Assembly (NCBI GenBank): GCA_003161515.1
Contig: PMOH01000316.1
Location: forward strand, 1,210-65,209
From: Deltaproteobacteria bacterium
Lineage (GTDB): Bacteria > Desulfobacterota > Binatia > Binatales > Binataceae
Reading direction: 5' to 3'
DNA: 64,000 nucleotides
The position numbers and the translations under genes are program-made. The notes beneath the pieces are model-generated. The model saw only the letters and a list, made by a program, of their open reading frames with translations. It did not search any database and had not been told where the DNA came from. Of this stretch, positions 3,058 through 63,076 are shown in pieces (the stretch's first letter is position 1; every line of letters starts with the position of its first letter).

Positions 3058-4185
3058 GTGGGTGATGAACAGATGAACAGATTGAAGCCAGAGAGAAGAG
3101 CGGAAGTGGAGCGGCGGCTGCGAGCTGGGGAAGGGGTTCGACAGATTGGGGCAGAGACGGGGGTGTCGAAAGAGACGGTGAGTCGGATCGCGGCAGAGAT
3201 GGGGATTAAGTTCGGGGGACCAGGGAGCAGACCTCGAGCAGGGGGCCGTGGGGTAGCGGTTCCCGGGCCGCGCGAGCCCCGAATTGAATTAGGGCTGACG
3301 CCAATTCAAACTGGAGACCCGATTGGGGAGACGATCGAAGCTTTCGAGAAGCGCGTGGGGGAGATAGACACAGAGTTGGCAAGCTTGGGGCCGCGGGTCG
3401 AGGTGCTGCAGGCCGAGGCAGCTCAGTTGAGGAAGGCGACGGAAGCGCTGTACGAGGTGTTTCACACGAAACCATCGTCGGGAGCTTCGGGGACGATACA
3501 CCCAGCGGAAAGAAAAGGTCATTGGGGAGACGGCGAGGTCTATCACCCGACGTACGGAGGCGGCGCAGCGAAGCGGACGACGACTACGTGGTGGATCCGG
3601 TATTACGCGGATGGAAAGCGAATTGCGGAAAACGCGCATACGCGCGACGAGGGAGTGGCGCGCGCGTTGGTGCAGTCGAGGGGATTGACCCGCAGCATCG
3701 GGCCGAACTTGCGACAGCGGATCGCGGAGAGGAACAGTTCCGGAAGGGTGGCCGAGCGGATTAAGGCTCCGGTCCTGAAAACCGATGAGGGGAAACCCTC
3801 CGCGGGTTCGAATCCCGCCCCTTCCGCCAAAATATCTGGGAATGGCGGGGCGCCACCGCCGGAAAAACGTGCAAGCACGGCCGGCGGCGTCGAAGCCGGC
3901 GCATCAAGCTCCGTCACCCTGTCGGCGTCGATCGCGCGCGAGATCTCGAGCAGCATGACGGCGCGCGTCAAACCGCCGATACAGCCTGCACGGCCGCGGC
4001 CCAAGCCAGCAGCGCCTCAACTGAGCGCCAGCTTACCGGAGGGTTCGCGGCTGAAATGGTCGGACAAGCAGAACAAGATGGTGATGACGGCGCCGGATGG
4101 GACCGAATTTGCGCCTGACCCCGGCCACGGCCCGAAAGAGGCGAACAATTGGAAGCCGCACTTCGATGGACTCCGGAATGCGTAG
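3058..4185 (+). CDS. HTH DNA-binding protein with Pro/Gly/Ala-rich low-complexity C-terminus
   Basis: N-terminal resolvase/transposase-type HTH (VRQIGAETGVSKETVSRIAAEMGI) followed by a coiled coil. There is no DDE or serine-recombinase catalytic motif. Start is GTG at 3058 or ATG at 3073. Confidence 0.4.
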   Translation: MGDEQMNRLKPERRAEVERRLRAGEGVRQIGAETGVSKETVSRIAAEMGIKFGGPGSRPRAGGRGVAVPGPREPRIELGLTPIQTGDPIGETIEAFEKRVGEIDTELASLGPRVEVLQAEAAQLRKATEALYEVFHTKPSSGASGTIHPAERKGHWGDGEVYHPTYGGGAAKRTTTTWWIRYYADGKRIAENAHTRDEGVARALVQSRGLTRSIGPNLRQRIAERNSSGRVAERIKAPVLKTDEGKPSAGSNPAPSAKISGNGGAPPPEKRASTAGGVEAGASSSVTLSASIAREISSSMTARVKPPIQPARPRPKPAAPQLSASLPEGSRLKWSDKQNKMVMTAPDGTEFAPDPGHGPKEANNWKPHFDGLRNA

Positions 4186-6465: not shown

Positions 6466-6936
6466 ATGACCCCGGAACAGCAGGAGAGGACGATGCAGAC
6501 ACCGCCGTACGAAGAGCGTTTCGATAACGAATACTGGCGCATCAAGTCGATCACGATAATATGGGCGTCCTTCTGGGTGATGGTATTCCTCCTGGGACTG
6601 CTAGTGATCGTATTCTTCAGCGGTTGCGCCACGATCGAGTTGGACTGCCCGACGACTGGGGGCGAGACCATCGCGGTTGGCGGTAGCACCGTCGGCAATC
6701 AGATCGTGGCGCTAGGTATCCTGGCGGCCCAAGGCGCGATGAAGTCGGGTGGCCTGGCGGCGCGTGAAGGAGCGACAGCGGCCGCCCCACCGCCGGTGAT
6801 GCACGTACACTATTCGTACGTTCCGATATTCGGATCCGACTATGTGTCATGCCAGGCGACGGGAGGCGGAGCGCCAGCGCCGATTCCCGTGGCGGTTATG
6901 AGCATGCCTGCGAACACGACGACGACGACTCACTGA
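6466..6936 (+). CDS. membrane protein
   Basis: Transmembrane segment IIWASFWVMVFLLGLLVIVFF followed by a Gly/Ala-rich region and a Thr-rich C-terminus. Confidence 0.4.
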   Translation: MTPEQQERTMQTPPYEERFDNEYWRIKSITIIWASFWVMVFLLGLLVIVFFSGCATIELDCPTTGGETIAVGGSTVGNQIVALGILAAQGAMKSGGLAAREGATAAAPPPVMHVHYSYVPIFGSDYVSCQATGGGAPAPIPVAVMSMPANTTTTTH

Positions 6937-7113
6937 TAGTCGGGTGAAAAAGAAACCGAAGGCGCCGAAGAAGCTCACGGTTGCGCAACGGCTCGCTGCC
7001 CTTGAACGAGTAGCGCACGACCCGAAGGACGTAACAGACAGGTTCCTTAAAATAGAGAAGCGGATTGCTGCCCTCGATAACGGCTATCGCAACTCAGGTC
7101 TAGGATTAGGTCG

Positions 7114-7623
7114 ATGATCATTGACATCGGCGACGCCATCGTGGTGCTCGGAGATTCCGCGCTAAGTTGGGCCATCAGCAAAATTACCGGGCCAGTTTCT
7201 CATATTGGCTTAGTAACGAAGGTTGTGCCGGTCGTCGAGGTCACGCAGGCGCTCGGCGACGGCATCAAGACTCTCACGCTGCCCGAGACGATGGCGACCG
7301 CGCGCTACGGCTACTGTCTGCACGACAACCTCTTCCCGCTGGCCGATCGCCAAAAAATGGTCGCTTGGGGCTTGAAGCAACTCGGAACTCCGTACGCATT
7401 TGCGGATCTGGCGCTCGAGGCCATCGACGCGCTCACCGGAAGCGAGAAGGCCAGCATTTTCTTCGATCAAGACGGCGCCGATATTTGCAGCCAGTATTTT
7501 TCGCTCGCGGCGATCCAAGTCGGGCGGTCTTGCGGTATCACGCCGCGCAAGGCGACTCCCTCGGACTGGCTTCATTATTCTCTGGCACAGACGAGCTGGT
7601 CGACGCAGCCGATCGCGAAGTAA
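7114..7623 (+). CDS. possible permuted papain-fold (YiiX/NlpC-P60-like) hydrolase
   Basis: 169 aa. The layout resembles the YiiX/DUF830 family (SHIGLV ... C..H). This is weak, by-eye similarity only. Confidence 0.3.
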   Translation: MIIDIGDAIVVLGDSALSWAISKITGPVSHIGLVTKVVPVVEVTQALGDGIKTLTLPETMATARYGYCLHDNLFPLADRQKMVAWGLKQLGTPYAFADLALEAIDALTGSEKASIFFDQDGADICSQYFSLAAIQVGRSCGITPRKATPSDWLHYSLAQTSWSTQPIAK

Positions 7624-7633
7624 GGGAAAGCGG

Positions 7634-8920
7634 ATGAAGATCGTGTTCGTGACGACCTGTAAGAATCGTGCCGCCCATCTGGCCAGAACGCTGCCGAAGA
7701 ACTTGGAGGACAATCCTCGATCGACGTTCCTGGTTCTGGACTATGGCAGCCAAGATGATTTGACATCTGTGCTGATGCCTTACCGGGACTTCAAGTACGG
7801 ACGGCTAGTTGTCTATCATTATCCGACCGACGGACCGTTCCGCATGGCCCACGCGAAAAACATGGCGCACCGGCTCGGAATCTTGGAAGGCGCCGACGTC
7901 TTGGTAAACCTCGACGCGGATAACTACCTCGGCGCCGGGTTCGAAGACTTTGTCGCGGAGAGATTTGAGAGCGACACGTTTCTCTGGTCCGGGCTGGTGC
8001 AGGGTCTCGGCCGCAAAATGCGGGGGGTCAGCGGCCGGATCGCGGTGACGCCGCAGGCGTTTCTCAAAGCCGGCGGTTACGATGAGAAGAAGTACGACAC
8101 TTGGGGGCCTGACGATAAGGATTTCAATGCCCGACTCTGTCACTTGGGCTACCGGCCCGTCCAGATCGATCGAAACTATCTGGCGGCGATCCCGCATGGC
8201 GATGGCGTGCGTTTTAAGGAGTACCCCGAGGCGCGTGAGAACGCGTTAGGAGAAGAGGCGGAACTGCCGCCGCCGGAGACCGCGGTCGCCAACTTTGGAA
8301 AGTTTGGCATGGGCGAGGTTCTCGGGCCCGGTGGCGCCCTGCAACTCGGCCCGATACCGACGCGCATCTTCGGAATCGGGTTGCACAAGACCGCGACCAG
8401 CTCGCTGCACGCCGCTCTTCAAATCCTGGGTTACGAGAGCGCTCACTGGGAGTCGGGGGCTTGGGCCAAAAGCGTCTGGGATGAAGTGCGCGCGGGAGGG
8501 ATTGCTCCGACCTTGGAGAAGTTTTATGCGGCGTCGGACCTGCCGATTAGCATTCTCTACAAAGAGCTGGATCGCGCGTATCCGGGATCGAAGTTCATCC
8601 TGACGATTCGGAATGAAGCCGAATGGCTGCGCAGCGTGCGCGATCACTTTTCGTACAAGAATCCGTTTCGGTGGGAATGGGACGTCTACCCGTTCAGCAA
8701 CGTGATCCATCAGGCGATTTACGGGCGCAAGACCTTCGACTACCACACCTTCCGGGCGCGCTATCGTTGGCACAACGCGGAAGTGATCGAGCATTTCAAG
8801 AATCGGCCCGATGATTTACTGGTGATGCGCACGCCGGCGTGGACAGATCTCTGCCGGTTTCTCGGAAACCCGGTTCCGAGCGTCGACTACCCGAGAAAAT
8901 TCGTAACTAACGGAGGATAA
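7634..8920 (+). CDS. bifunctional GT-A glycosyltransferase / sulfotransferase fusion protein
   Basis: ATG at 7634 with a GGGAAAG RBS. The N-terminal half has a beta4GalT/GT2-like GT-A fold with LVLDYGSQDD and a DAD metal motif. The C-terminal half has the sulfotransferase 5'-PSB P-loop GLHKTATSS and 3'-PB-like RNEAEWLRS. Confidence 0.5.
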   Translation: MKIVFVTTCKNRAAHLARTLPKNLEDNPRSTFLVLDYGSQDDLTSVLMPYRDFKYGRLVVYHYPTDGPFRMAHAKNMAHRLGILEGADVLVNLDADNYLGAGFEDFVAERFESDTFLWSGLVQGLGRKMRGVSGRIAVTPQAFLKAGGYDEKKYDTWGPDDKDFNARLCHLGYRPVQIDRNYLAAIPHGDGVRFKEYPEARENALGEEAELPPPETAVANFGKFGMGEVLGPGGALQLGPIPTRIFGIGLHKTATSSLHAALQILGYESAHWESGAWAKSVWDEVRAGGIAPTLEKFYAASDLPISILYKELDRAYPGSKFILTIRNEAEWLRSVRDHFSYKNPFRWEWDVYPFSNVIHQAIYGRKTFDYHTFRARYRWHNAEVIEHFKNRPDDLLVMRTPAWTDLCRFLGNPVPSVDYPRKFVTNGG

Positions 8921-12064: not shown

Positions 12065-12302
12065 CGATTCCTATACCGGCAAGGCCGCATCGATCGTTCA
12101 AGAGGTCGAAGACATCGCAATTTTATTTGGCTGGTCGTTCGAGCGCCTCTACAACGGATTCTGGCAAAGCCCCCGCGGGCTCGCGGCGGTGCTTCTCGAC
12201 GACGATCAGATCGACTCAATCGACGAAAACTACGCCATCATTCGCCCCAAGCAGGCCGGCGGGAAGACCCTCAAATTCTGGCGTGTGACCAATGGCTACT
12301 GA
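12015..12302 (+). CDS. hypothetical protein
   Basis: 95-aa ORF directly upstream of the terminase and overlapping its start. Confidence 0.3.
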   Translation: MMENMSKAPEAQAMARDDSYTGKAASIVQEVEDIAILFGWSFERLYNGFWQSPRGLAAVLLDDDQIDSIDENYAIIRPKQAGGKTLKFWRVTNGY

Positions 12303-13902
12303 GAGTTTCGAATCACTATCTTCCGCCGAGCAGGAGGTTATTCTGACCCGCGCCTGTCCTGACTATTGGCTCGAAAAGACGACTGGCGAAAAGGCTTGGG
12401 CTAGGCAGGTCGAGGTCATGCAGGCGGTTGCGATGCACCCGCGGGTGGCGGTCGCGTCCGGGAATGGAATTGGGAAAACGTGGCTCGCTGCTCGGTTGGC
12501 GGCCTGGTTCCTAAGCGTCTTCTCCCCTGCGACCGTGGTGACTACCGCGCCGAACATGCGTCAAGTGAAAGACCTCCTCTGGAAAGAAATTCAGGTCGTC
12601 GCTGGCAAGGCCAAAGAGAATGGGCATGATCTTGGCGGCGAACTGTTCACCGCGAGTTGGGAATTTCCCGCGCTCAAGAGAAGGGGCATTAGGCACTACG
12701 GCGTCGGCTTCGCCTCGAAAGAATACGACGTCAACCAATTTCAGGGCTATCACAACTCACACATTTTGGTGATAGAGGATGAGGCCGCCGGCATCAGTGA
12801 GCCGGTCGACGAAGGGATCAACTCGATACTCAAAGGCGCCTTCACCCGCTGGCTGAAAATCGGCAACCCGACCACACTCAAAGGGCCGTTCTTCGGAGCC
12901 TTCAAGAGTAAAGACTGGGTCTGTTATCACATTTCGCAATTCGATACCCCGAACGTAAATGCCGTCCCTCCACCGCGAATATTTGAACAGGATCTCGGCA
13001 CGCGCAAAGAAATCATGGAGCGGTTCCTCGATAGCCTCCTCACGATGCCGATCAGTATCGATGGCGTTGTAACCCCGGCAAATATCAAGAGCGACTTCTA
13101 CAAATGGGGCGAAGATCATCCGCTCTGGCAGGCGCGTGTGCTCGGGCAGTTTCCGGATCGGACGGAGGACACCTTCATCGCGATCTCGTGGGTCGAGCGC
13201 GCCGCGGCGGCGACTCGCAATCTGGAAGGCGCGACTATCGACGTCGGTGTCGACGTCGCGCGCTATGGCAGCGCGAACACGGTCTTTGTCGCGCGCATCG
13301 GCGATCGGCCTGCACAGGGAAACGCATTCGCTTGGGAGAAGTACGGTCAGCAGGGCTTGATGGTTACGTGCGGCCGCATTATCCAGTTTATTTCAAAGAT
13401 CCGTGCCTTTTGGAAGGAAGTGGCCCCCGCGAATCTGCCCTGCCCGCTGATTCGAGTCAAAATCGACGCAGTTGGCCTCGGTGCGGGCGCCTACGATCGC
13501 TGCAAGGAGATCTTCGACGGTGAAGAATGGCGCGTGGATGGCCGACGTACCGTCACGGTCCACGAAATGATCGAGCATCGCACCGCGCGCAATCCCATCC
13601 AATACACCAACGCTACTACCGAATGGTGGGCGCTGACAGCACGAGGCTTCGAAGCCGGGGACATCTCCGGCGAGGTCTTCGCTGACAAAGACCTGATGGA
13701 CGAATTGGTCTCGCGCAAATACGAATACGGGTCCGATGGGAGAATGCGAGCAGAGAGCAAGGAGGCCATGAAGACACGCGGCGAGGCTTCACCGGACTTC
13801 GGCGACGCCGTGGTGATCGCTTACGCAGACATACCAATGAGTTTATTCGATGATGAGGAGCCGTCATCCGGCCTACACGCAGGTCTTGTCTACGGCAGGT
13901 AG
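12292..13902 (+). CDS. terL: terminase large subunit
   Basis: Walker A (GNGIGKTW) and Walker B (ILVIEDEAAG) motifs. The C-terminal half is RNase-H-like nuclease (IDAVGLGAGAYD ... DFGDAVVIA). It lies directly upstream of the portal. Confidence 0.8.
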   Translation: MATESFESLSSAEQEVILTRACPDYWLEKTTGEKAWARQVEVMQAVAMHPRVAVASGNGIGKTWLAARLAAWFLSVFSPATVVTTAPNMRQVKDLLWKEIQVVAGKAKENGHDLGGELFTASWEFPALKRRGIRHYGVGFASKEYDVNQFQGYHNSHILVIEDEAAGISEPVDEGINSILKGAFTRWLKIGNPTTLKGPFFGAFKSKDWVCYHISQFDTPNVNAVPPPRIFEQDLGTRKEIMERFLDSLLTMPISIDGVVTPANIKSDFYKWGEDHPLWQARVLGQFPDRTEDTFIAISWVERAAAATRNLEGATIDVGVDVARYGSANTVFVARIGDRPAQGNAFAWEKYGQQGLMVTCGRIIQFISKIRAFWKEVAPANLPCPLIRVKIDAVGLGAGAYDRCKEIFDGEEWRVDGRRTVTVHEMIEHRTARNPIQYTNATTEWWALTARGFEAGDISGEVFADKDLMDELVSRKYEYGSDGRMRAESKEAMKTRGEASPDFGDAVVIAYADIPMSLFDDEEPSSGLHAGLVYGR

Positions 13903-13983: not shown

Positions 13984-15672
13984 TTGGATCTATACGACCG
14001 CCTGTTAGACGGAACCTTCTACGATCATTTGCCCAATTCGTTTTATGAAGAGACGGGACAACGAAACCACTACATCCCGCTGCATGAGCGCCGGCCGTCG
14101 GTCCAGTACAATCTCTGTGCGTTCGTGGCCAGGAAGATCGCGCGCAAGCTCTTCGCGGGACGCCACGCGCCTCGCTTCGCGCACGAAAACGACGACCTCA
14201 AGGAAGCGGCTACCGCACTCGCGCGCGAGGGCTTCCTCGAGCAGAAGCTCCTTCGTGCAGCGGTCTGGGGCTCCGTCGGCGCCGTTTGCGTCACTTTCAA
14301 AATCGAGCCCGATGGCGCCGAACAGCAGCGCATCGTATTCGAGGTCTGGCGCGCGAAATGGTGCGAGCCGGAATTCGACAAGCTCGGCGAGCTGAACTCG
14401 CTGCGCATCGCCTACCTGACTTATGGCTACCAGTTCAAGGCGATCTACGGGGTCGAAAAGGACGATGAGGGCAAGCCGATCGATGATGGCGCCCTCTATT
14501 GGCATGTCTCGGACATCGACACGCAGCAATGGATTGTCTACCAACCGAGAGCCAAGGACTCATGGCCCCCTGGCGATGAAAAGCCACTCTTGGCGATGGA
14601 CGAGTTGAAGCAACCTACGCCGCACAACTTCGGGTTCGTGCCGGCGCATTGGTTCGTGAATCTGTCGAGCGGGGATGACATCGACGGCCAATGCCTGTTC
14701 AAAGATGCGATCAACACGGCGATCGATATCGACTACACCATCAGCTCGCTCGGCCGCGGCGTCCGCTACAATGCCTCGCCCGAGGTAGTGCTAATCGGCA
14801 AACGCAAGAATGCCGACCTGGACGAACGCACCGGGACGATGGTGATCCGCGGGCCGACTCACGTCATCGAGATGGAAGGCACCCGGCGCGATTCCGCCGG
14901 CAACCAGATCGGCGGCGGTGACGCGAAGCTCCTCGAAATGAGCGGCCAGGGGATTGCCGTCGGCCTGCAGCTCGTGGAGACGCTCCGGAAGTTTGCGCTG
15001 GAATCGATAGCCGCCTCCAGGAAGGACCCCGACAAGATAGGCGGTCCCCAAAGCGGCCGTGCGATGGAGATGCTCGACGACGATCCGCTCGATCTCTATG
15101 ACGAGATGCGCCAGACGTACGGCGAGAACGGATCCCTGCCTCTGATGCGCAAGGCGATGCGCGCGGCGGCGAAGGTAAAGCACGCCTTGCTTGAAGGCGT
15201 TAGTCTCACCGACATTGATGCGCTCGCTTACTACTGGCCGAAGCCGTACCAGCCGGGCGCGCAGGAGATATTCCAGCTTGGGCAAGGACTTGTTGCGCTC
15301 ACCACGCCGATTCCGGACGAGCACGAAACTGCTCCTGGGCCTGCTGTACCCGGCGCCGACGGGAAACCGGGGAAGCCCGGCGCGGCGCAGCAGACTGGCA
15401 CGGTCGCGATGCGGCCGATTATGACGATCGAGAAGGCGTCCCGCTTGGTCGACACTATGCTCGACGTTCCGCCGGACGTTGCGACTATGCCCGCGCAACA
15501 GGAGCCCGCGCCCACCGGAGACGATGGCGGGCATCCTTCTCCGGAGCCGGTCGAGACGCCGGAGCACGACAAAGAAGACGAAGGAGACGCCCTCGCGCGC
15601 GCGTCGAAGCTCTCGCAGCCTAAACCGAAACGTCCGAGCGGGCGAGCGCCACGCAAGAAGGTAAGTAAGTGA
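13984..15672 (+). CDS. portal protein
   Basis: 562 aa, immediately after terL, with an acidic/Pro-rich C-terminal tail. The call rests on position and size. Confidence 0.6.
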   Translation: MDLYDRLLDGTFYDHLPNSFYEETGQRNHYIPLHERRPSVQYNLCAFVARKIARKLFAGRHAPRFAHENDDLKEAATALAREGFLEQKLLRAAVWGSVGAVCVTFKIEPDGAEQQRIVFEVWRAKWCEPEFDKLGELNSLRIAYLTYGYQFKAIYGVEKDDEGKPIDDGALYWHVSDIDTQQWIVYQPRAKDSWPPGDEKPLLAMDELKQPTPHNFGFVPAHWFVNLSSGDDIDGQCLFKDAINTAIDIDYTISSLGRGVRYNASPEVVLIGKRKNADLDERTGTMVIRGPTHVIEMEGTRRDSAGNQIGGGDAKLLEMSGQGIAVGLQLVETLRKFALESIAASRKDPDKIGGPQSGRAMEMLDDDPLDLYDEMRQTYGENGSLPLMRKAMRAAAKVKHALLEGVSLTDIDALAYYWPKPYQPGAQEIFQLGQGLVALTTPIPDEHETAPGPAVPGADGKPGKPGAAQQTGTVAMRPIMTIEKASRLVDTMLDVPPDVATMPAQQEPAPTGDDGGHPSPEPVETPEHDKEDEGDALARASKLSQPKPKRPSGRAPRKKVSK

Positions 15673-16199
15673 ACCCTCAACTAATCCAGGTACGCGAGCC
15701 CGAGATCGGGTCCAAGGGCTTTCTCATCGAGAAAGATGGGCTCTTCGTCTTATCGACCGGACCGGGATTGTTGCGCGGTATCGCGTGCACCCACGCGGGA
15801 TCCGGAATGCTCGTGGTGCACGACGGGGTGCCTACTTCGAATGGCTTCTTCGAGAATCGCGGACACCGGCAGATGGCGGCCGGCAGCAGCGACGAGATCT
15901 GGCGGTGCGCGCGGTGCGATGGCGCTCAATGCCCGATGTGTTTTGGTGCCGGGGAGATTGCTCATGCGATCGAACGCGTCCCTTGCCCGGTAGGACCTCG
16001 GCATTGTTCAGCCTGCAGGGGCACCGGAATAGAGGGAGACTACTGGTCACGAAACGGCCGCGTGATGATGCGGCTGAATCAAATGGGGATGTGGATGTTC
16101 GATGCGGGGTTTCACCACGGCCTCTCGATCGCAGTTGCCGGCGGAACCCCATCGGTGCACATCATCGCGACGATCACTTGGCTGACGCATGGCGACTAA
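15669..16199 (+). CDS. DnaJ-type zinc-finger (CxxCxGxG) protein
   Basis: CARC, CPMCFGAG and CSACRGTG repeats typical of the DnaJ cysteine-rich domain. The start overlaps the portal stop. Confidence 0.45.
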   Translation: MNPQLIQVREPEIGSKGFLIEKDGLFVLSTGPGLLRGIACTHAGSGMLVVHDGVPTSNGFFENRGHRQMAAGSSDEIWRCARCDGAQCPMCFGAGEIAHAIERVPCPVGPRHCSACRGTGIEGDYWSRNGRVMMRLNQMGMWMFDAGFHHGLSIAVAGGTPSVHIIATITWLTHGD

Positions 16200-16458
16200 A
16201 CAAAAAGCACATCGAAAGCCGGGCAAGGTTGTGAAGTTGCACGCGATCGACGGGCAGCATGGGGTCCACGCGACGCTGGCCAGGCTCTATCGGAATTTAG
16301 AGAAGGATTTTCCGGGCGCCAAGCAAGTCTTGGTCGTGATTCAGAGTTACCCCGACAAGAACCACGAATGCGAATGGGCGACGGTTACTAACAATCTGAC
16401 GCGGGCTGAAAAGCTCTATTTGTTGGAGATGGGGAAACGGGTGATGTTCGGTGACTGA
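16189..16458 (+). CDS. hypothetical protein
   Basis: 89 aa. Chained to its neighbours by overlaps. Confidence 0.35.
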   Translation: MATKQKAHRKPGKVVKLHAIDGQHGVHATLARLYRNLEKDFPGAKQVLVVIQSYPDKNHECEWATVTNNLTRAEKLYLLEMGKRVMFGD

Positions 16459-16753
16459 GTTGTTCACACCGGCCGGGCCCGGAAGCCTCATGCGATCGGT
16501 AACGATCGATGATGTCGGCGTCTTCCACGTAGCCCGTCGGACCTGCGAGCTGTACTCGGTCGAGATTATGAGCGGTTGGGGCAGACTCAGGGCGAGCAAT
16601 GGACGCGGTCGGAGCCTCTGGTATCAGCCGTCCATTTTCACAGGATCGTTTGTGATTGGGTGCGAGGCCGAAGAAGGATTGATCGTGGAGATCCAAGGTG
16701 GACCGCCGACGGTGAACGTCAACTTTAGAGAGAAAACGCGCGACCTAGTGTGA
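16451..16753 (+). CDS. hypothetical protein
   Basis: 100 aa. Overlapping-coupled to its neighbours. Confidence 0.35.
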   Translation: MTELFTPAGPGSLMRSVTIDDVGVFHVARRTCELYSVEIMSGWGRLRASNGRGRSLWYQPSIFTGSFVIGCEAEEGLIVEIQGGPPTVNVNFREKTRDLV

Positions 16754-16986
16754 TTCAAATCAAGTCCCCAATGACAGGTTCGATACAGCTCTTTTTGCGC
16801 GAGAACGGGGCGACGGTCGCGGCTGGGGACAAGATCATCGGCATCGAGAGTATGAAGATGATGAACGAGGTAAAGACGCCGGCTGCGGGTCGGCTGAGTT
16901 TTAAGGTACGTCTTGGACAAGTAGTGAATCGCGGACAAGTTCTGGCGGAGGTGGATGATGGCGCTACCAATCAAACTAACAGCTAG
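16750..16986 (+). CDS. biotinyl/lipoyl-domain (BCCP-like) protein
   Basis: 78 aa with IESMKMMNEV. This matches the (E/S)(A/S)MKM biotin-attachment hairpin flanked by a hybrid-barrel pattern (GDKIIGIE ... GQVVNRGQVLAEV). Confidence 0.5.
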   Translation: MIQIKSPMTGSIQLFLRENGATVAAGDKIIGIESMKMMNEVKTPAAGRLSFKVRLGQVVNRGQVLAEVDDGATNQTNS

Positions 16987-17266
16987 CGGGGCGGGGATCG
17001 CGGCGAGTGCACAGCTCCAAAGTTCGGGGTTAGTGGTCGCCATTAAAGGCGTGGCTGGCGTCGCGGCTCTCGATGCTGCGGTCTGGGTCGCCCCGCAGAA
17101 CAACGCTACTACGAACGGCGACGAGATCGCGCATATGAAAGCGTCGGCCGCAGGGACAGACACACTGGCGGTGCCAAACGGCATAGCTGTCGAGTCGGGT
17201 CAGTACCTGCTGGTGAACTTTGTCGACACTGACGCCAATCACGAAGTCTGGATATATTTCGACTGA
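16955..17266 (+). CDS. hypothetical head-module protein
   Basis: 103-aa ORF. Its start overlaps the upstream CDS. Confidence 0.35.
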   Translation: MMALPIKLTASGAGIAASAQLQSSGLVVAIKGVAGVAALDAAVWVAPQNNATTNGDEIAHMKASAAGTDTLAVPNGIAVESGQYLLVNFVDTDANHEVWIYFD

Positions 17267-17288: not shown

Positions 17289-18041
17289 ATGTTCATACAA
17301 GGCTTCTTCGGTAGAGAGTTGGACCGACGGATGTTGCTGCTTGAGGGCGAAGGCGAAGGTGGTGGGGGAGGAGGAGCTGGCGGCGATCCTCCTGCCGGCG
17401 GTGGCGCACCCGCAGGCGGAGGCGGAGCGCCGCCAGCCGCTGAGAGCGGCGAGGTGGATATCGCCAAGTTGCCGAAAGCAGCTCAGGAATACATCCAGAA
17501 AATCCGCGGTGAGTCCGCGAGTGAACGCACTAAGCGAATCGCTGTCGAAGCCGAGCGCGATCGCCTGTCGAAAGAGAAAAAAGACAGCGACGACAAAGCT
17601 TCCGTCGAAAAAGGCGAGTTCAAAACCCTCTACGAGAATACCAAAAAAGAACTCGATACCGAACGCACCGCGCGCCGAGCACAGACCATCGACGGTGCGA
17701 TCCGCGAGGCTGCCGCCGCCGCTGGTATCTTAGATCCCGACCTCGTCACTCTCATCAAGCGCGAGACCGTCCAAGTAACCGATTCCGGTCAGGTCGCCGG
17801 TGCCCGCGAGGCTGTTGAGGCGTTCAAAGCCGAGAAGCCCAATCTCTTCAAGGCTGCTGCGCCTGCTGGCGGTGGCGGGGGAGGCGGCGGTGGTCCTACC
17901 CCTCGGGGGACCGGGCCCCGCAGTCCCGCCCCGGCTGGTGATGGCGGCGGCGGCGCACCGAAGGATGTCGGCACTTTGGAGCAGAAAGAGTATAACGCCC
18001 ACAAAGCTCAGACGCTTCGCAGTCTGCGAAACGTACGGTAG
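17289..18041 (+). CDS. scaffolding-like protein
   Basis: ATG at 17289 with an AAGGGAGAGAAGG RBS. It has a Gly-rich N-terminus, a charged coiled-coil core (AERDRLSKEKKDSDDKASVEKGEFKTLYENTKKELDTER) and a Gly-rich C-terminus. Both composition and position fit a scaffold. Confidence 0.45.
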   Translation: MFIQGFFGRELDRRMLLLEGEGEGGGGGGAGGDPPAGGGAPAGGGGAPPAAESGEVDIAKLPKAAQEYIQKIRGESASERTKRIAVEAERDRLSKEKKDSDDKASVEKGEFKTLYENTKKELDTERTARRAQTIDGAIREAAAAAGILDPDLVTLIKRETVQVTDSGQVAGAREAVEAFKAEKPNLFKAAAPAGGGGGGGGGPTPRGTGPRSPAPAGDGGGGAPKDVGTLEQKEYNAHKAQTLRSLRNVR

Positions 18042-18051
18042 GAGGGCCGCC

Positions 18052-18705
18052 ATGAAAAGCATACCTAGTTGGCTATTGGCACTTTTAATCTTGCTGACAC
18101 CGGTGACGGCTATGCCGCAAAGCGGCTCCTTCACCGCGCGCGGCTACACATCCAGTGATCGGAGTGTAGGCGCCGTACGAAGCGGCAGAATCAGCACGCA
18201 CATCGGTACTCACGCCCATCTAGTTTGTCGCGACCGCAGCGGAAAGGTGGTTTGGACCCGCGACGCCGATAACATGCTGACCACGGTGGGCGCGAATCTA
18301 TATCTGACTGATACGATCGTGAGCGGCGTCTCGTCGCCAACTTGGTACGTCGGACTGCTTTATGGGACGAGCGTCGCGACGTTCGCGACTGCGGATACCA
18401 TGTCGTCGAACGGCTGGGCTACCGGCACCGGCGGTGGGGAAGTTACCGGCACGCAGGTCACCAACTCGACGCGGCCGGCGTTTACCCCAGGCAGCGTTTC
18501 GGCCGGAAGCGTCAGCAATACCGGATCGCCGGCGGTCTTCACCGGCAACGCCACGGTTACCCTTCAGGGCTTTATCTTCGTGAATAATTCGACGCTCGCA
18601 GGCACGACCGGAACTTTGATGGGCGAGGGGACTTTTACTGCCGCGCCGATCGCGGCGGGCTACACCATCACCGTAACGGTGACCGATAACGTAACCCCTG
18701 GTTGA
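18052..18705 (+). CDS. signal-peptide protein (Thr/Gly-rich beta-type)
   Basis: Signal peptide MKSIPSWLLALLILLTPVTA. Start is ATG at 18052 after the scaffold stop. Confidence 0.45.
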   Translation: MKSIPSWLLALLILLTPVTAMPQSGSFTARGYTSSDRSVGAVRSGRISTHIGTHAHLVCRDRSGKVVWTRDADNMLTTVGANLYLTDTIVSGVSSPTWYVGLLYGTSVATFATADTMSSNGWATGTGGGEVTGTQVTNSTRPAFTPGSVSAGSVSNTGSPAVFTGNATVTLQGFIFVNNSTLAGTTGTLMGEGTFTAAPIAAGYTITVTVTDNVTPG

Positions 18706-20696
18706 GAGCTAGCCCGATGCGGCGTTGGGGAATAATCGGCGTTCTGCTTGCGCTGCTCCTGTTTTGGATCGGCAATGCCAGCGCCGGCGTCAAGTTCTTC
18801 AGTGGCTTTGAGACGGGCGATTTTAGCGAATGGTCATCAACCACGGGTTCACCTGGCGTAGTTACATCACCCGTAACACTTGGTGGCTATTCGGAACAAA
18901 CTACTTGGGGCTCGGTAAACTATGCGGTAAGCGGTAGCGTTCTGAGTGGCACAACAGGGGTTTTGCGGTTTTCGTTTAATACCAATGCAGCCTCACCAAC
19001 TACTACCAATCAGATTGTTTTTACTCAGATTTTTAATACCTCCGCTCAGGTTCCTGCGGCAATCCGGCTGCAAACTGACTCGACTGGGAATCTCACTTTC
19101 GGGGTTAGAAGCCTTGCCGGCACTTTAGGAAACTTCACGCTCCAACCCAATACCTGGTACACGATAGAACTAAAGTGTCTGGTCGGAACTACGACGAGCA
19201 ACGGTACGGTCGAAGCACGGGTCAATGGGTCTGTAGTCTTTACAACTAGCTCCACCAATACCGGTACTGTCAATCTGGACCACATATGGCTAGGCCCGAT
19301 GACCAATCCGGGGGGATCGCTAACCGGCCACCTGTGGTTCGACGATGTTATGGTCCGCGACGATCAATATCCCGGCCGCGGTTATTGCATCGCGCGACAA
19401 GGCGTCACTGGTACTCCTACCTATACAGGTTGGACCGCGAATGGCTTGAGTACCGCAGCTTTGAATTGGTCGGAGACGCCCTACAACGCGACCGATAATG
19501 AAAGCACGACTACGGCGTCGACGCCGGAACAGAGCATGCTGATGGGCTCGTTCAACTCCGCGGGATCGGCCTCGGAAGGCAGCGGCGTCCTGACCAGCGC
19601 GGCTACGATCAACGCCGCCAAGACGGCGATGGTCGCTCAGTCCTCTTTCACCACCTCCAAGGCATTACAGATTCTCGATCGCCTCAGCGGCTCAGACACT
19701 CTCACCACCGTCACCGCGACCTCGAGCGACGCCTACTACGACGGCGGAATCTATACTCCTACCTATGCCAACCTGACTTCATCCAGCACCGAGATCGGCG
19801 TCAAGAACACCGGCACTGGAACCGGGACCGCGCGGGTTGAGGATATGTGGGAGATGGTCGATTTCGCATCGACGGTCCCGGTATCGAGCTCGTTCGGCAA
19901 TGGCGGTTCTGTCACGGCTTCGAGAGCGGCGACCGTATCGAAGTCGAGTCCCTTCGGCAACGGCGCGCCTATCACCGGATCGCGTGTCGCAAGCCTCGCG
20001 CGTTCTGCGCCATTTGGCAACGGGGGGATCATCAGTGGAGCGCGCGCGCCCAGCACGCGACCCTCGGGTTCGTTTGGAAATGGAGGCTTGGTCTCAGGCG
20101 CGCGGGCGGCGGCCGTCGCCAAGACCCCCAACTTCGGTAACGGCGGATCGGTCCTAGGATCGAGCGCCGAACAGCTAGCGAGGTCGGGCACCTTGGGCAA
20201 CGGGGGCATTGTCGCGGGTTCTAGATCGGCGTCACTCACGAGGTCCGCCGCATTTGGGAATGGCGGGACGATCTCTGGCCTCATCCATAAATTAGTTGTG
20301 CTATTCGGTTCTTTCGGAAATGGGGGCGGTATGGCAGCAACACGCACGGCCAAAGTTACAAAGTCGGGTTCGTTCGGTCATGGTGGCGTACTTCTGAGTT
20401 CGCGGGCCGTCTCGGTCGCACGGGGAGGCAACTTCGGGAATGGCGGCCTGATCTCAGGGTTGCGCAATCTGTTGGCGCGAATCGTTGCATTCTTCGGCGG
20501 GGGCGGTTCGGTGATTGGGAATGCTACCGCGACCAAGACCCCGACCCCGGTGGCGACCCCGACCCCGGTGGCGCCGATCGTTAATCTGACAATGCCGATC
20601 TATCCGACGGTTTACGAAGACCCCGCGATGTGGCCGACCGTGCCTTTGACAGCGCCGCTTTATCCGAGGATCTATCTTGAAGCGAGGATGCCCTGA
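18702..20696 (+). CDS. signal-peptide protein with about 12 tandem FGNGG repeats
   Basis: Signal peptide ...LLFWIGNASA. The N-terminal roughly 200 aa may be a lectin/LamG-like beta domain. These are followed by about 12 repeats of roughly 17 aa (xS.FGNGGxxxGxRAxSxx) and a TPTPVATPTPVAP tail. Confidence 0.5.
   Translation: MRASPMRRWGIIGVLLALLLFWIGNASAGVKFFSGFETGDFSEWSSTTGSPGVVTSPVTLGGYSEQTTWGSVNYAVSGSVLSGTTGVLRFSFNTNAASPTTTNQIVFTQIFNTSAQVPAAIRLQTDSTGNLTFGVRSLAGTLGNFTLQPNTWYTIELKCLVGTTTSNGTVEARVNGSVVFTTSSTNTGTVNLDHIWLGPMTNPGGSLTGHLWFDDVMVRDDQYPGRGYCIARQGVTGTPTYTGWTANGLSTAALNWSETPYNATDNESTTTASTPEQSMLMGSFNSAGSASEGSGVLTSAATINAAKTAMVAQSSFTTSKALQILDRLSGSDTLTTVTATSSDAYYDGGIYTPTYANLTSSSTEIGVKNTGTGTGTARVEDMWEMVDFASTVPVSSSFGNGGSVTASRAATVSKSSPFGNGAPITGSRVASLARSAPFGNGGIISGARAPSTRPSGSFGNGGLVSGARAAAVAKTPNFGNGGSVLGSSAEQLARSGTLGNGGIVAGSRSASLTRSAAFGNGGTISGLIHKLVVLFGSFGNGGGMAATRTAKVTKSGSFGHGGVLLSSRAVSVARGGNFGNGGLISGLRNLLARIVAFFGGGGSVIGNATATKTPTPVATPTPVAPIVNLTMPIYPTVYEDPAMWPTVPLTAPLYPRIYLEARMP
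19880..20470 (+). repeat. tandem roughly 51-bp coding repeats (FGNGG units)
   Basis: The FGNGG pentapeptide recurs about 12 times at roughly 17-aa spacing in the translation. The DNA periodicity is visible (ttcggcaa(c/t)gg(c/g)g...). Confidence 0.65.
20538..20573 (+). repeat. perfect 18-bp tandem duplication ACCCCGACCCCGGTGGCG x2
   Basis: Seen directly in the sequence. It encodes TPTPVA x2. Confidence 0.8.
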
Positions 20697-21073
20697 TGAA
20701 AACTCTCAAAAGACTTGGCTTCTCAATTCCGCTCGCCCTGCTCCTCGCTTTTCCGACGTTCGCGGCCCAGCAGCAACAGGTCTATGTCGCCGGGGCGAAG
20801 GGCGTCGTCCTCAACATCACCCCGAACACCGCGACCCAGCCGCCGGTAAATTTAACTGGGGCGACGGTCACCCTCGTAATCATCTCGCCAATCAGTGTGC
20901 GCCATGTGGTCACAGCGACGGTCGCCAACGGTGGGACGAGTGCAACCTACACTACTCTCGCAACGGATTTCCCTACCGCCGGCGCCTACCAACTGCAACT
21001 CGTTGCGCAGTGGGGATCGGGGGTGCTCATATCGAGTGCGGCCTTCAATCTCACGGTGAGCCCCGCTCTCTGA
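20696..21073 (+). CDS. signal-peptide small protein
   Basis: Signal peptide MKTLKRLGFSIPLALLLAFPTFAA and a beta-rich body. The start overlaps the upstream stop (ATGA). Confidence 0.45.
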   Translation: MKTLKRLGFSIPLALLLAFPTFAAQQQQVYVAGAKGVVLNITPNTATQPPVNLTGATVTLVIISPISVRHVVTATVANGGTSATYTTLATDFPTAGAYQLQLVAQWGSGVLISSAAFNLTVSPAL

Positions 21074-21337: not shown

Positions 21338-22708
21338 ATGTCGAGCCCAGGCACTTTCGTAAATTTCCCGCCGCAACTCCTTGGGATGTTGCAGCAAAAT
21401 TTCCTCGATCGCGAACTCGAGGAAGGTCTCGATTCCTATCTGGCCTACCGGCGCGAAGCGGTCCAGGAGACTATCCCAGCGCGGATCGGCGCGACCCTCA
21501 CTATGACCAGAAAGGGGCGTAAGACCCCGATCACGCAACCGCTCGATCCGACCCAGGTCGGCACCAACCTCGACAATGGGATGACGCCCTCGACGTTCTC
21601 CATCGAGCAGTACAGCTTCTCGATGAAGGAATGGGCGGATACCGTCGATACCGATTTGATGGGCGAATTGGCGGGCATAGCCAATCAGCTTATCGCCAAC
21701 TCGCGGAACAACGGCGTCCAAGCCGCGCAGTCGATGGAGCGCATCGCGCGTAATGATTTGTTCGCCGCATACATGAGCGGCAACTCGCGCGTCCTCGCCG
21801 TCAACTCGCAGACGTCGATCCAGGTCGACGATATCCGCGGCTTCGGCACGGTCCTCGTAAACGGCACACCGCAGGGTGTGAGCTCGGCGACTCCGTTGGC
21901 GATCACCGAATACAACGATTCCGGAACTTTGGCGACGGCCACGCAGGCGCTCAACGTCACGGGCGTCGCCCCGGACGCGACGAACGTGAGCTCCACCAGC
22001 ATCACCGGTGGGCTGTCGGGAGTGCTGACCTTGGCGGCCGGCGCGGCCAATACGATCCAGGTGGGCGACTCGGTCATCTCGAACAATGCCCCCAAGGTGT
22101 TCCGGCCGTTCGGCAAACGCCTGACGAGTTTGCTAAATGGCGCCGACGTTCTCACCATGTCGATCGTCGATGATGTCCGGGCCTATCTGCTGGATAACGG
22201 CGTTCCGCCGATGCCCGATGGCACCTATCACATGATTTTGGATAACACCTCGATGCGTCAGTTGAGGGCCGATCAGGACTTCAAAGTCCTGTTCGCAGGG
22301 CGCGAGGAGACTCCGGAGTTTCGCGGCGGCGATATCGTGCGCCTGCTTGGCATAACTTTCATCCCCACCACGGAAACCTTTGTCCAAAATCCCGGCTCCG
22401 GCGTTGGGGTGCGAGTACGCCGGCCGATCATCATGGGGGCCGAGAGCTTGATGCAGGGTAACTTCGAAGGGCTGGACATCTGGCTCAATCGAGAGGGCGT
22501 CAATCCGATCGGCGAGATCATGCTGATCGATAACGTCGCTCAGATTGTGAGGCCACCGCTCGATCGCCTGCAGCGCAACATCGCGCAGACCTGGACTTGG
22601 ATCGGAGACTTCGCGGTCCCGACCGACGTCACCGCCACCACAGACACTATCCCCACCGCTAGTAACTCCTTGTTCAAACGCGCAGCGGTGATTGAGATAG
22701 CTGGCTGA
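21338..22708 (+). CDS. major capsid protein candidate
   Basis: 456 aa, the largest head-module ORF, downstream of the scaffold. No signal peptide. The call rests on size and position only. Confidence 0.45.
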   Translation: MSSPGTFVNFPPQLLGMLQQNFLDRELEEGLDSYLAYRREAVQETIPARIGATLTMTRKGRKTPITQPLDPTQVGTNLDNGMTPSTFSIEQYSFSMKEWADTVDTDLMGELAGIANQLIANSRNNGVQAAQSMERIARNDLFAAYMSGNSRVLAVNSQTSIQVDDIRGFGTVLVNGTPQGVSSATPLAITEYNDSGTLATATQALNVTGVAPDATNVSSTSITGGLSGVLTLAAGAANTIQVGDSVISNNAPKVFRPFGKRLTSLLNGADVLTMSIVDDVRAYLLDNGVPPMPDGTYHMILDNTSMRQLRADQDFKVLFAGREETPEFRGGDIVRLLGITFIPTTETFVQNPGSGVGVRVRRPIIMGAESLMQGNFEGLDIWLNREGVNPIGEIMLIDNVAQIVRPPLDRLQRNIAQTWTWIGDFAVPTDVTATTDTIPTASNSLFKRAAVIEIAG

Positions 22709-54455: not shown

Positions 54456-55183
54456 CGACACCCGAACTTGTAATGGCAGCAAGTGGCATTCTCTTCGGGG
54501 GCGGGGTGCTATTCGCGGAATTTCGACGACGTATAGTCGACGAGAAACAAGAATCTGCGGATAAGCTCGCGCACGTGAAGGAACTCAACGACGCAAAGTT
54601 AGAAGCGGCGAAAAATCATGCGAATCTGTCGGGCAAACTGGATATGGCGGCTCTCCTACAGAGTGTGCAGTTCCAGCACCTTCAAGGTGTCACCAAAACA
54701 GCCGCCGAATCGCCAGCAACCACCATCGAAGTAGCCAACAACACGATTCAATCCCTAAGCAACCAAGTCAAGGAATTGACGGAATACACTCGCCACGTCA
54801 CACATGATCAATTCCGTCGCTTTGGAGAAGCCGTCCCTAACATTTTGGCCCTAGAACGTGGCGACGGCCATGCATACTGGCGGGACTACGCTGGCGTTCG
54901 GATACTCTATTGCCACTACATCGAGTCGATTAACTATGCCCAAGAGCTGATGGGTTTATTCGGGGCCTCAGCGATCACGGTCACTAGTTGGGAAGACAAT
55001 AGCTACGAAGCACTTAATATTGCTGGCCTCAAATTGCTGATCGCCGATCCGGGCAACCCAACAGACAACAATGTCAAGACAATGGCGCTTCTTCGAGCAG
55101 CGGATATTCAATTTGAAGTCGAAAAGCGGGAGACGGACGCCCCCCTTATCTCAACGTTACGCGTCGGTCGGTGCGCGGGATGA
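54452..55183 (+). CDS. membrane-anchored coiled-coil protein
   Basis: Transmembrane segment (VMAASGILFGGGVLFA) followed by a coiled coil. Local GC is lower, so it could be a moron. Confidence 0.4.
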   Translation: MTTPELVMAASGILFGGGVLFAEFRRRIVDEKQESADKLAHVKELNDAKLEAAKNHANLSGKLDMAALLQSVQFQHLQGVTKTAAESPATTIEVANNTIQSLSNQVKELTEYTRHVTHDQFRRFGEAVPNILALERGDGHAYWRDYAGVRILYCHYIESINYAQELMGLFGASAITVTSWEDNSYEALNIAGLKLLIADPGNPTDNNVKTMALLRAADIQFEVEKRETDAPLISTLRVGRCAG

Positions 55184-56028
55184 ACTATCAGCACCTTCGC
55201 GCACTCGTAGTCAACGACTACGCGATCAACAATCAGCGCTCGGATGTATTGAATGCCCGCCTGAAGCACCTCGACGACGCCTTCGCCTTGTCAACAGGCT
55301 CTATCTCGGCTGTGGATATCCAGTCATATACCGCCGGTAGATTAGCTCAAGGTACAGCCCCCGGAACCGTCAACCAAGAGTTAGCTGCGCTGCGCCGGAT
55401 GTTCAGTCTTGCGGTCAAACTCCGTCTGATCACTCTCGATCAAAAGCCTTGGATTCAACTTCTTCGCTTGCGCAACGCGCGCAAAGGCTTCTTCGAGAAA
55501 GACCAGTACGAGAGTGTCAAACGTGCTCTGCCAGAGCCGTATCGCCCGATCGTCACCACGATGTTCATCACGGGTTGGAGATGCCAAGAAGTTTTGTCCC
55601 GGCAGAAAAAGCATCTCGACCTAGCTAATGGATGGTTGCGGCTCGACCCAGGTGAGACCAAAAATGGCGAGGGCCGCGAGTTTCCGCTGACCCGCGATCT
55701 CCGCGCGTGTCTTACTCCGCAGCTCGCGGAAGTCAAGGCTTTTGAGCATCGCACGGGCAGGATCGTGCCGTGGCTTTTCCACAGGGACGGCGAGCGGATC
55801 TGTGGATTCAGGCGCGCTTGGGAGAACGCTTGCAAGCAGGCCGGCGTGCCGGGGCGGATGCTTCACGACTTCCGGAGAACAGCCGTTCGTAACATGGAGC
55901 GGAAAGGTGTCCCGCGCTCGGCCGCGATGAAGATGGTTGGAATGCTGACTGAGTCGATCTATCGTCGCTACGCGATCGTTGATGAGACTGTGCTGAAGGA
56001 GGCCGGCGCTAAGCTGGATGCATTATGA
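55171..56028 (+). CDS. int: tyrosine recombinase (phage integrase family)
   Basis: Catalytic-domain motifs are present (R in ...TGWRCQEV, LHDFRRT with His/Arg, and a terminal ESIYRRYA with the nucleophilic Tyr). At 285 aa it is short, with a core-binding but no arm-binding domain. Confidence 0.7.
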   Translation: MRGMNYQHLRALVVNDYAINNQRSDVLNARLKHLDDAFALSTGSISAVDIQSYTAGRLAQGTAPGTVNQELAALRRMFSLAVKLRLITLDQKPWIQLLRLRNARKGFFEKDQYESVKRALPEPYRPIVTTMFITGWRCQEVLSRQKKHLDLANGWLRLDPGETKNGEGREFPLTRDLRACLTPQLAEVKAFEHRTGRIVPWLFHRDGERICGFRRAWENACKQAGVPGRMLHDFRRTAVRNMERKGVPRSAAMKMVGMLTESIYRRYAIVDETVLKEAGAKLDAL

Positions 56029-63059: not shown

Positions 63060-63076
63060 CAATCAAAAACTCTCTC

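Follow-up and report, generated by a model that had tools for sequence, protein, structure and literature searches.

In this work, we have analysed a stretch of 64,000 nucleotides deposited under the name Deltaproteobacteria bacterium (GenBank assembly GCA_003161515.1, contig PMOH01000316.1, positions 1,210 to 65,209 of the forward strand), which we refer to as "the window" and which constitutes most of a tailed-phage genome of ~64-75 kb. Our analysis is focused on a short open reading frame (ORF) of the phage head module, which we call gene C, and on the genes located next to it, called A, B and D. The product of gene C is, with near certainty, a genuine, minimal but complete biotinyl domain of the type that occurs in the biotin carboxyl carrier protein (BCCP); the gene is no lone oddity, but one member of a conserved cassette, where it is found together with genes A and B, whose products are, by profile comparison, probably jelly-roll paralogues. 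While the domain itself is already textbook material, its genomic context is the new part: protein C is one of a group of standalone biotinyl domains that form a distinct and conserved clade of their own in phages; their genes lie in a head-module cassette, next to those of two uncharacterised proteins, putative jelly-roll paralogues, and we have not found them in the cultured phages and the phage protein catalogues that were searched.

The biotinyl domain encoded by gene C

The identification of protein C (78 residues, translated from its GTG start: MIQIKSPMTGSIQLFLRENGATVAAGDKIIGIESMKMMNEVKTPAAGRLSFKVRLGQVVNRGQVLAEVDDGATNQTNS) is based on its sequence family, its predicted fold and the position of its attachment lysine. 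The protein matches the Pfam family PF00364 (Biotin_lipoyl) over profile positions 2-72 of 73, with a score of 49.1 bits (E = 5.1e-13), while the gathering cut-off of the family is 22.1 bits; the HlyD, M23, RND-adaptor and RNAP-hybrid families match weakly as well. In the phmmer comparison with the sequences of the Protein Data Bank (PDB), the matches are mostly biotinyl domains (MCC, PCC, ACC and the 1.3S transcarboxylase subunit), alongside a small number of lipoyl domains and of engineered fusions that carry a biotin tag; the alignments run end to end, and residue K36 (codon AAG, positions 16855-16857) falls on the biotinyl-lysine of the solved domains. Lipoyl domains carry the motif D-K-A at the hairpin, while biotinyl domains carry E-[AS]-M-K-M; the hairpin of protein C is of the latter form, and biotinyl-type NCBIfam models outscore the lipoyl-type ones on it. 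The NCBIfam equivalog cut-offs are missed by protein C in TIGR00531 BCCP (24.2 against 115.2), NF006079 (34.8 against 95), NF004547 (34.8 against 75) and NF047903 MmdC (25 against 200).

The AlphaFold2 model of protein C, built on 29 sequences, has a predicted local distance difference test (pLDDT) score of 93.4 and a predicted template modelling (pTM) score of 0.80, and folds as a flattened beta-barrel, i.e. a barrel-sandwich hybrid, where strand 28-34 is joined to strand 37-42 by a turn of two residues, M35 and K36, and this turn is the tip of the hairpin. When this model is compared with the PDB by Foldseek, the best 48 of the 50 matches listed are biotinyl domains, with template modelling (TM) scores of 0.8-0.93, normalised to single-domain targets, and a root-mean-square deviation (rmsd) of about 1 Å, as in the example of 2ejf_C (TM 0.93, rmsd 1.0 Å). 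The sequence-only reading from which this analysis started had described a 78-residue ORF with the biotin/lipoyl attachment hairpin IESMKMMNEV in a barrel pattern, lying between the portal and a scaffold-like gene, and it would have been abandoned for an unrelated fold or for a lysine away from the hairpin tip; the ORF is present exactly at positions 16750-16986 on the + strand, it is located between the portal (13984-15672) and the scaffold gene (PF06810, ending at 18041), and both the barrel and the place of the lysine have come out of the structure prediction as that reading had proposed.

The features that are recognised by a ligase, namely the target lysine and the hairpin, are present in protein C. 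In the model, K36 is separated by 35 residues from the N-terminus and by ~33 residues from the end of the last strand; this spacing agrees with the minimal biotin-accepting domains that truncation work has reportedly defined. The "thumb" that is specific to E. coli is absent, as it is in most biotinyl domains. The GTG start is required for strand beta-1 (residues 2-5), since a start at the internal ATG (M8) would truncate the fold.

Protein C is best understood next to the biotinyl domains of carboxylases and decarboxylases (P. horikoshii BCCP deltaN79, 2ejf, 2d5d and 5gu8; P. shermanii 1.3S, 1dcz; E. coli BCCP, 1bdo), with which it shares the fold, at the TM and rmsd values given above, the E-[AS]-M-K-M hairpin with the lysine at its tip, the positions of conserved Pro and Gly residues and the minimal size of ~70 residues. 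It differs from them in that it stands alone, with neither an N-terminal linker nor an oligomerisation region nor a thumb of the E. coli type, in that no partner enzyme has been found nearby and no equivalog cut-off is reached, in that the residue that follows the lysine is relaxed in its family, and in that its gene lies in the head module of a phage. The small cellular "biotin/lipoyl-binding carrier proteins" (NF004547 and NF006079, 70-76 residues, from Saccharopolyspora, Novosphingobium and others) are similar to protein C in size, single-domain architecture and Pfam family, but they occur in a cellular context, protein C remains far below the cut-offs of their models (34.8 bits), and they reach at most 62 bits in the profile of the C family.

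The cassette in related phages and its absence from known collections

In order to find relatives of protein C, we have conducted an exhaustive HMMER scan over 1.84 billion representatives, which has yielded ordinary cellular carriers, many of them with tandem biotinyl domains, and short standalone proteins of 68-80 residues. The contigs of nine short proteins (P0002, P0004, P0015, P0019, P0029, P0042, P0097, P0091 and P0033) were examined; further members were obtained from a motif scan of metagenomes (L027 and L028) and from a search of IMG/VR anchored on protein B (L043 and L045). The homologues of protein C, both close and distant, occur only in metagenomic contigs, with P0001 being 94% and P0002 64% identical to it. 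Samples from which related contigs derive are SRR29078151, ERZ27248477 and IMG 3300014501.

All 15 distinct C sequences are found in the arrangement portal - A - B - C - (D) - scaffold - capsid, as far as their contigs reach, and the same context holds for 9/9 of the short representatives picked from the unbiased HMMER scan. Of the four contigs returned by the B-anchored search, three continue beyond B, and gene C is present in each of these; gene A is present wherever a contig extends further upstream of B, and gene D usually follows C. The cassette is kept across relatives whose portals are down to 40% and whose capsid proteins are down to 56% identical, in contigs with GC contents of 45-62%. 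That A, B and C make up a conserved cassette is a conclusion that we hold with very high confidence.

Gene B directly precedes gene C in 12 of the 15 contexts, with an overlap of 4 nucleotides in eight of them and of 1 nucleotide in two; in the window, the stop codon of B overlaps the GTG start of C (GTGA). The inserts that occur between the two genes are a DNA methyltransferase gene in contig L045 and small ORFs in L006 and L040; the gene of L045 (positions 6466-7224) encodes an N6/N4 DNA methyltransferase of 252 residues and is situated exactly between B and C. L006 and L048 encode A and B as a single fused protein, while no fusion of C to another cassette protein has been found among the best 150 representatives. 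Many of the metagenomic cellular carriers among P0003-P0020 contain two to four tandem biotinyl domains with linkers rich in Ala and Pro (P0008 has 407 residues and P0014 has 343), and such carriers outrank the true orthologues in single-sequence searches because their repeats inflate the scores.

A gene that is short, starts with GTG, lacks an obvious Shine-Dalgarno sequence and is overlapped by a longer antisense ORF (16624-17184, 186 residues) could be taken for a spurious ORF, or for a recently captured, decaying piece of a host BCCP gene. This explanation is already effectively refuted by the conservation data. For gene C, the ratio of nonsynonymous to synonymous divergence (dN/dS) is ~0.2 (0.21 with L002, 0.19 with L001), compared with 0.12 for the portal, 0.13 for the capsid and 0.13-0.17 for B; the full-length domain is kept with an intact motif in the 15 diverged contexts; and a motif scan of 185,579 prokaryotic species genomes, one for each species, gave only chance matches and true carboxylases, those of Microbacterium. 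In addition, a profile of 12 verified C members, searched against 5.8 billion proteins, has returned 14 clusters at 84 bits or more, followed by a gap down to the cellular carriers at 62 bits or less; this gap and the small set of clusters indicate that the C family is distinct and rare. The reading of C on the + strand, to which the antisense ORF is the rival, is supported by known-domain homology, conserved synteny and purifying selection.

The divergence between the window and L002, two otherwise near-identical phages, peaks at B and C (window 16451-16986, L002 9702-10237): the synonymous divergence (dS) is 0 for the capsid, 0.008 for the portal, 0.054 for D, 0.109 for B and 0.163 for C, which suggests, by sequence comparison, either a recombinational exchange of the B-C segment or a faster turnover at this place.

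Judged by the capsid protein, the cultured phages that come closest are Raharianne of Ralstonia (45% identical), phiKX1 of Komagataeibacter (39.5%) and Kromp of Streptomyces (31%). The head modules of Raharianne and phiKX1, the two that were inspected, contain no cassette and follow the plain order terminase - portal - scaffold - capsid; the carriers of the cassette are, as judged from sequence, an uncultured clade of Rahariannevirus-related tailed phages. The motif scan of species genomes has revealed no prophage copy from which the host could be named; for the phage of the window, the capsid relatives in Ralstonia and Komagataeibacter phages, together with a GH108 endolysin, hint at a host among the Proteobacteria.

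Searched by tblastn, 50,697 phage records contain no match to B, and only three matches to C, in the records MT835556, MT835614 and MT837082 ("UNVERIFIED Bacteriophage sp."). The first two, which were inspected, have been rejected as phage precedents, their matching proteins being carrier subunits of 134-136 residues in cellular oxaloacetate/methylmalonyl-CoA decarboxylase operons. Both records (MT835556.1, our L036, and MT835614.1, our L037) come from human faeces and hold complete decarboxylase operons, with a carboxyltransferase, a biotin carrier and a membrane beta subunit, and are likely bacterial or prophage-flank sequence inside a phage collection. In PHROG, the best match of C is not significant (E = 0.026) and there is none for A, B or D; no significant match to a cassette protein has been found in NCBIfam or, apart from that of C, in Pfam. 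Among the predicted viral structures of BFVD, only two giant-virus lipoyl domains match the model of C significantly, and no phage biotinyl domain is found; these two proteins (Edafosvirus A0A3G4ZUT5 and Hyperionvirus A0A3G5A815) belong to the same superfamily as protein C, but they are of the lipoyl type, come from viruses of eukaryotes, are 17-20% identical to it and lie outside any morphogenesis module.

In the literature searched, no natural precedent has turned up, only engineered phages that display BCCP. A BCCP gene is mentioned in passing for Burkholderia phage PhiE067 (PMC7266877); this gene was not recovered by tblastn of C over the 50,697 phage records at E<=1e-3.

Putative partners of protein C and its possible function

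Protein B is predicted to form eight strands (AlphaFold2 pLDDT 87.5), and its best resemblance in the PDB is to folds of the nucleoplasmin-core type, with Foldseek TM scores of 0.55-0.65. It is the most conserved protein of the head module, being 86% identical in L001, compared with 80% for the capsid; across the 10 sequences of its alignment, 29 columns do not vary, and Arg, Glu, Ser and Cys account for many of these; the invariant polar residues include R15, R29, R30, C32, E33, Y35, S36, R45, S61, S66, E80, N91, R93 and E94. Since the families of A and B are matched to each other by hhalign with a probability of 82.8% (E = 9.4e-6, 82 columns), the two proteins are probably paralogues. A conserved His or metal-site pattern is seen in neither family alignment, and when sequence profiles of A and B were compared with the PDB, the only matches were spurious ones (a PPR protein and a sortase).

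Protein A has no Pfam, PHROG or NCBIfam match apart from a weak Zn-finger match; a weak match to the PHROG annotation "antitermination Q-like" stems from its Cys-rich segment. This segment, an insertion at window positions 15906-16044 (about residues 80-125), contains four CxxC motifs, three of which resemble the CxxCxGxG motifs of DnaJ (CARCDGAQ, CPMCFGAG and CSACRGTG); it is found only in the window, L001 and L002, while the other A homologues have a short variable loop at the same place, and it has, from its sequence, the look of a zinc ribbon that was inserted in a loop of the jelly roll.

The start of gene D, which is preceded by a Shine-Dalgarno sequence (GGAGG), lies within the 3'-terminal part of C, and the place of D is taken in L028, L043 and L045 by an unrelated protein of 236-245 residues, which we call D'. 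The possibilities that D is a paralogue of B, or a short form of the 236-245-residue protein, were considered and rejected (hhalign probability below 1% in both cases). Likewise, the idea of B as an avidin-like binder of biotin has been rejected: its fold is a jelly-roll sandwich and no avidin or streptavidin is found among its best 50 Foldseek matches. A programmed frameshift that would join C to D has also been rejected, because the length of the overlap and the relative frame vary among relatives (32 nucleotides, +1 frame, in the window, 1 nucleotide in L004, and no overlap in L006).

Among the 12 members of the C family with verified context, which are 29-64% identical to the window protein, E33, M35, K36, P44, G47, L55, G56 and A66 are invariant; these are canonical structural positions and residues of the ligase-recognition hairpin. 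The residue that follows the lysine is M in nine of them and T in three; an M-K-T protein of the family is encoded, for instance, at positions 6311-6532 of L043. Over the best 150 representatives, MKM occurs in 144 of the 147 motif instances of long cellular proteins, compared with 20 of the 34 short standalone proteins, where the other forms are MKT, MKL, MKV, MKI, MKS or CKT; the last of these belongs to P0091, which has C-K-T in place of M-K-M. Mutagenesis of the transcarboxylase 1.3S subunit has reportedly indicated that the flanking Met residues matter for the catalysis of carboxyl transfer and not for biotinylation; the ligase is said to read the exact position of the lysine at the turn, and ligases reportedly modify, across kingdoms, essentially any folded biotinyl domain that has its lysine at the right turn position. 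The retention of the lysine, the Met at -1 and the Glu at -3, together with the relaxation of the Met at +1, fits a protein that is selected for biotinylation rather than for shuttling CO2.

No biotin ligase, biotin carboxylase or carboxyltransferase has been detected by Pfam in the ~30 non-structural proteins, the cassette proteins and six further structural-region proteins of the window, a scan that left aside most tail-region ORFs and ORFs shorter than ~120 residues; no carboxylase partner domain is found among the neighbours of C in the relatives either. As no ligase is detected in the proteins scanned, any modification must come from a ligase of the host, and host biotin protein ligases are known to accept foreign folded biotinyl domains. 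Biotinylation of protein C in vivo is, on these sequence-derived grounds, rather likely.

In our best explanation, for which acceptance and doubt are close to balance, with doubt slightly ahead, protein C is a substrate of the host ligase that works together with A and B as a head-associated accessory. It would be made late, together with the head proteins and in roughly equal amounts with B; the biotin protein ligase of the host would attach biotin to K36 of apo-C; and holo-C would form a complex with B and A, giving rise to an accessory that is associated with the procapsid or the capsid, as a decoration, a cement or an internal core component. It would not be the carrier of a carboxylase, because the window proteins scanned contain no carboxylase or ligase domain and because the residue after the lysine is relaxed. 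The association with the head or the virion, taken by itself, seems possible but somewhat doubtful; it is proposed because the cassette is located in an apparently uninterrupted, tightly packed run of head genes on the same strand and is kept there across diverged relatives. A more ambitious version, where holo-C is held by A and B on or in the capsid as a naturally biotinylated head component or, in its stronger variant, where A, B and C form a new biotin-dependent machine that is packaged with the genome, we regard as rather unlikely. By position, the cassette is similar to genes 67 and 68 of T4, small prohead-core genes located between portal and scaffold, this similarity being an analogy only.

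Several observations weigh against a head-associated accessory. No cassette protein matches a known decoration, cement, core or ejection family in PHROG, Pfam or NCBIfam, and the fold of B is only generically of the jelly-roll type, with TM scores that do not exceed 0.65. The unrelated genes that occur between B and C in some relatives indicate that the coupling of C to B is not obligatory and that the site tolerates morons; similarly, the three secreted-looking proteins that are encoded further downstream in the module indicate that non-structural cargo can live there. Finally, B is better conserved than the capsid and has many invariant polar residues, a pattern that one meets in enzymes and obligate assembly factors more typically than in decoration proteins.

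The tolerance of the head module for non-structural inserts also lends weight to a different proposal, namely that protein C is a non-structural factor of host takeover, acting as an abundant late apo-domain and sink for the ligase and biotinoyl-AMP, or as a competitor of AccB at the biotin carboxylase or the carboxyltransferase; fatty-acid synthesis or biotin regulation would thus be perturbed late in infection, with A, B and D serving as co-factors or being neighbours that have nothing to do with it. The fully canonical character of protein C, which is closest to the biotinyl domains of carboxylases, agrees with this proposal, as does the fact that any biochemical partner must be a host protein, given that no ligase or carboxylase has been detected in the phage. 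Nothing, however, would oblige a decoy to keep its place beside B, between portal and scaffold, in phages whose portals are only 40% identical; the relaxed residue after the lysine (MKT, MKL, MKV) speaks against selection for docking at a carboxylase active site, and a pre-existing holo-ACC would presumably be unaffected within one infection cycle, so that we judge this proposal to be unlikely. Plant BADC proteins, which are BCCP-like negative regulators of the heteromeric ACCase, are a model for such a decoy, but they lack the biotinyl lysine that the C family keeps invariantly.

The same relaxed position, with the C-K-T of P0091 as its extreme form, could alternatively mean that protein C is used for its fold only, its barrel and hairpin serving as an interaction module that plugs, for example, into B, A or the scaffold, with the lysine being kept for binding and left unmodified. 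Barrel-sandwich hybrid domains are widely reused as adaptors, as is illustrated by the weak HlyD, M23, RND-adaptor and RNAP-hybrid matches of protein C; nevertheless, the Glu at -3, the Met at -1 (replaced by one Cys among the short representatives) and the lysine are kept at 29-64% identity, and these are the positions that define ligase substrates, while an escape from ligases would need a specific counter-selection, of which there is no sign. We consider a purely architectural role to be a weak contender. Weaker again is the idea that the A/B jelly-roll (cupin-like) pair supplies a new enzyme activity, possibly in or on the capsid, with protein C as its swinging-arm carrier, which we find improbable. 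The greater conservation of B than of the capsid and its many invariant polar residues, the presence of one cupin enzyme among its Foldseek matches (AzcA, TM 0.55), the tight coupling of genes B and C and the A-B fusions of two contigs could all be accommodated by it; on the other hand, A and B are unlike the ATP-grasp biotin carboxylases, the crotonase-fold carboxyltransferases or any known biotin enzyme, they lack a conserved His or metal-site pattern, and the Met after the lysine, which is near-universal in catalytic biotin carriers, is relaxed in the C family.

If the head-associated accessory is considered next to known virion proteins, its closest counterparts for B are the jelly-roll capsid accessories of tailed viruses (cement and turret proteins, e.g. 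the HFTV1 turret, 8qpg) and the pentamer fold of the nucleoplasmin core: B is likewise an eight-stranded jelly roll of ~100 residues from a head module, and so, by hhalign, is A, but the likeness is generic only, with TM scores of 0.42-0.65, identity below 20% and no sequence-family match. To our knowledge, biotinyl domains are known almost only as the swinging arms of carboxylases; a conserved, standalone, ligase-ready domain that is encoded in a head module beside two putative jelly-roll partners, with no carboxylase detected among the window proteins scanned, points to protein biotinylation beyond carboxylation. If a biotinylated head component does exist in these phages, theirs would be the first natural virion with a biotin cofactor installed by the host, while, if protein C is a decoy, it would represent a new viral means of interfering with the biotin and fatty-acid systems of the host. 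For comparison, phages have been engineered by fusing BCCP or biotin-acceptor peptides to capsid proteins, which are then biotinylated by the host ligase (PMC10533843, PMC3256129); the outcome would be the same for protein C if it is on the particle, i.e. biotin installed by the host ligase, but the engineered phages are laboratory fusions to known capsid proteins, while C is a separate natural gene. A location of protein C on the particle would provide a natural streptavidin handle of the kind that is now engineered via BCCP-capsid fusions (PMC10533843), and a new class of capsid accessory.

The head module and other features of the phage

The order of the head module in the window is terminase, portal, A, an 89-residue ORF, B, C, D, scaffold, three secreted-looking proteins and capsid, with the genes located on one strand, tightly packed and in an apparently uninterrupted run (Table 1); consensus scans have revealed no convincing internal promoter or terminator. 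The 89-residue ORF has no Pfam, PHROG or NCBIfam match.

Table 1. Positions of the head-module features in the window, with the evidence for each assignment.
Feature	Position	Strand	Evidence
Terminase large subunit, bounding the head module upstream	12292-13902	+	phrog_2, E=2.4e-27; 66% identical in L001
Portal	13984-15672	+	phrog_145, phrog_64; 40-43% identical to the portals of relatives' contigs that reach it
Cassette protein A, 176 aa	15669-16199	+	Family alignment; hhalign against B; A-B fusions
Variable ORF between A and B, 89 aa	16189-16458	+	BLASTP; in the closest relatives L001, L002 and L004 only
Cassette protein B, 100 aa, jelly-roll/beta-sandwich	16451-16753	+	AlphaFold2, Foldseek, BLASTP
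Cassette protein C, standalone BCCP-type biotinyl domain, 78 aa	16750-16986	+	GTG start; Pfam, fold, dN/dS, orthologues
Hairpin motif of C, I-E-S-M-K-M-M-N-E-V, residues 32-41	16843-16872	+	Sequence and model
Cassette protein D, 103 aa, acidic, pI 4.4	16955-17266	+	BLASTP to L001, L004, L006 and L048; alignment of the D family
Head scaffolding protein	17289-18041	+	PF06810, E=3.9e-16; phrog_194
Major capsid protein, bounding the head module downstream	21338-22708	+	phrog_1357, E=2e-20; 45% identical to the capsid of Ralstonia phage Raharianne

The ORF of the scaffolding protein opens at 17220, with the likely start being the ATG at 17289 behind AGGGAGAGAAGG; the corresponding gene call in L002 has 250 residues. 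Between scaffold and capsid, at window positions 17800-21073, there are three ORFs with N-termini that resemble signal peptides, which is odd within a head module. The first has ~220 residues and starts with MKSIPSWLL; the second has 664 residues (1217 in L002 and 675 in L001), with about a dozen diverged "FGNGG" repeats of ~18 residues; the third has 125 residues and a weak Ig-like match. No family match has been found for these ORFs of the window, and they are absent in L006, L040, L043 and L049. Directly after the capsid gene of L002, at its positions 17963-18808, there is a gene for an HNH endonuclease of 281 residues, which appears to be absent from the window, according to gene calls and BLAST coordinates, and which is probably a mobile homing-endonuclease insertion.

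Outside the head module, the window encodes at positions 7400-8920 a protein of 506 residues, with glycosyltransferase-like regions and a C-terminal sulfotransferase domain (PF17784, E=2e-32); it is unusual for a phage, and may be an enzyme that modifies a surface or DNA. Genes of DNA modification form a cluster at 59372-60025, 61395-61862 and 63050-63757; they comprise an N6/N4 methyltransferase gene, one for a protein of the Mom family (PF25680, E=8e-16) and one that matches a C5 cytosine methyltransferase in part. A tRNA-Ser with the anticodon TGA (3742-3829) lies inside a long, mechanically called ORF (3058-4185), part of which is probably spurious for this reason; the tRNA could be phage-borne or could mark an attachment region. 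Finally, a tyrosine integrase gene is located at positions 55171-56028, from which the phage is probably temperate.

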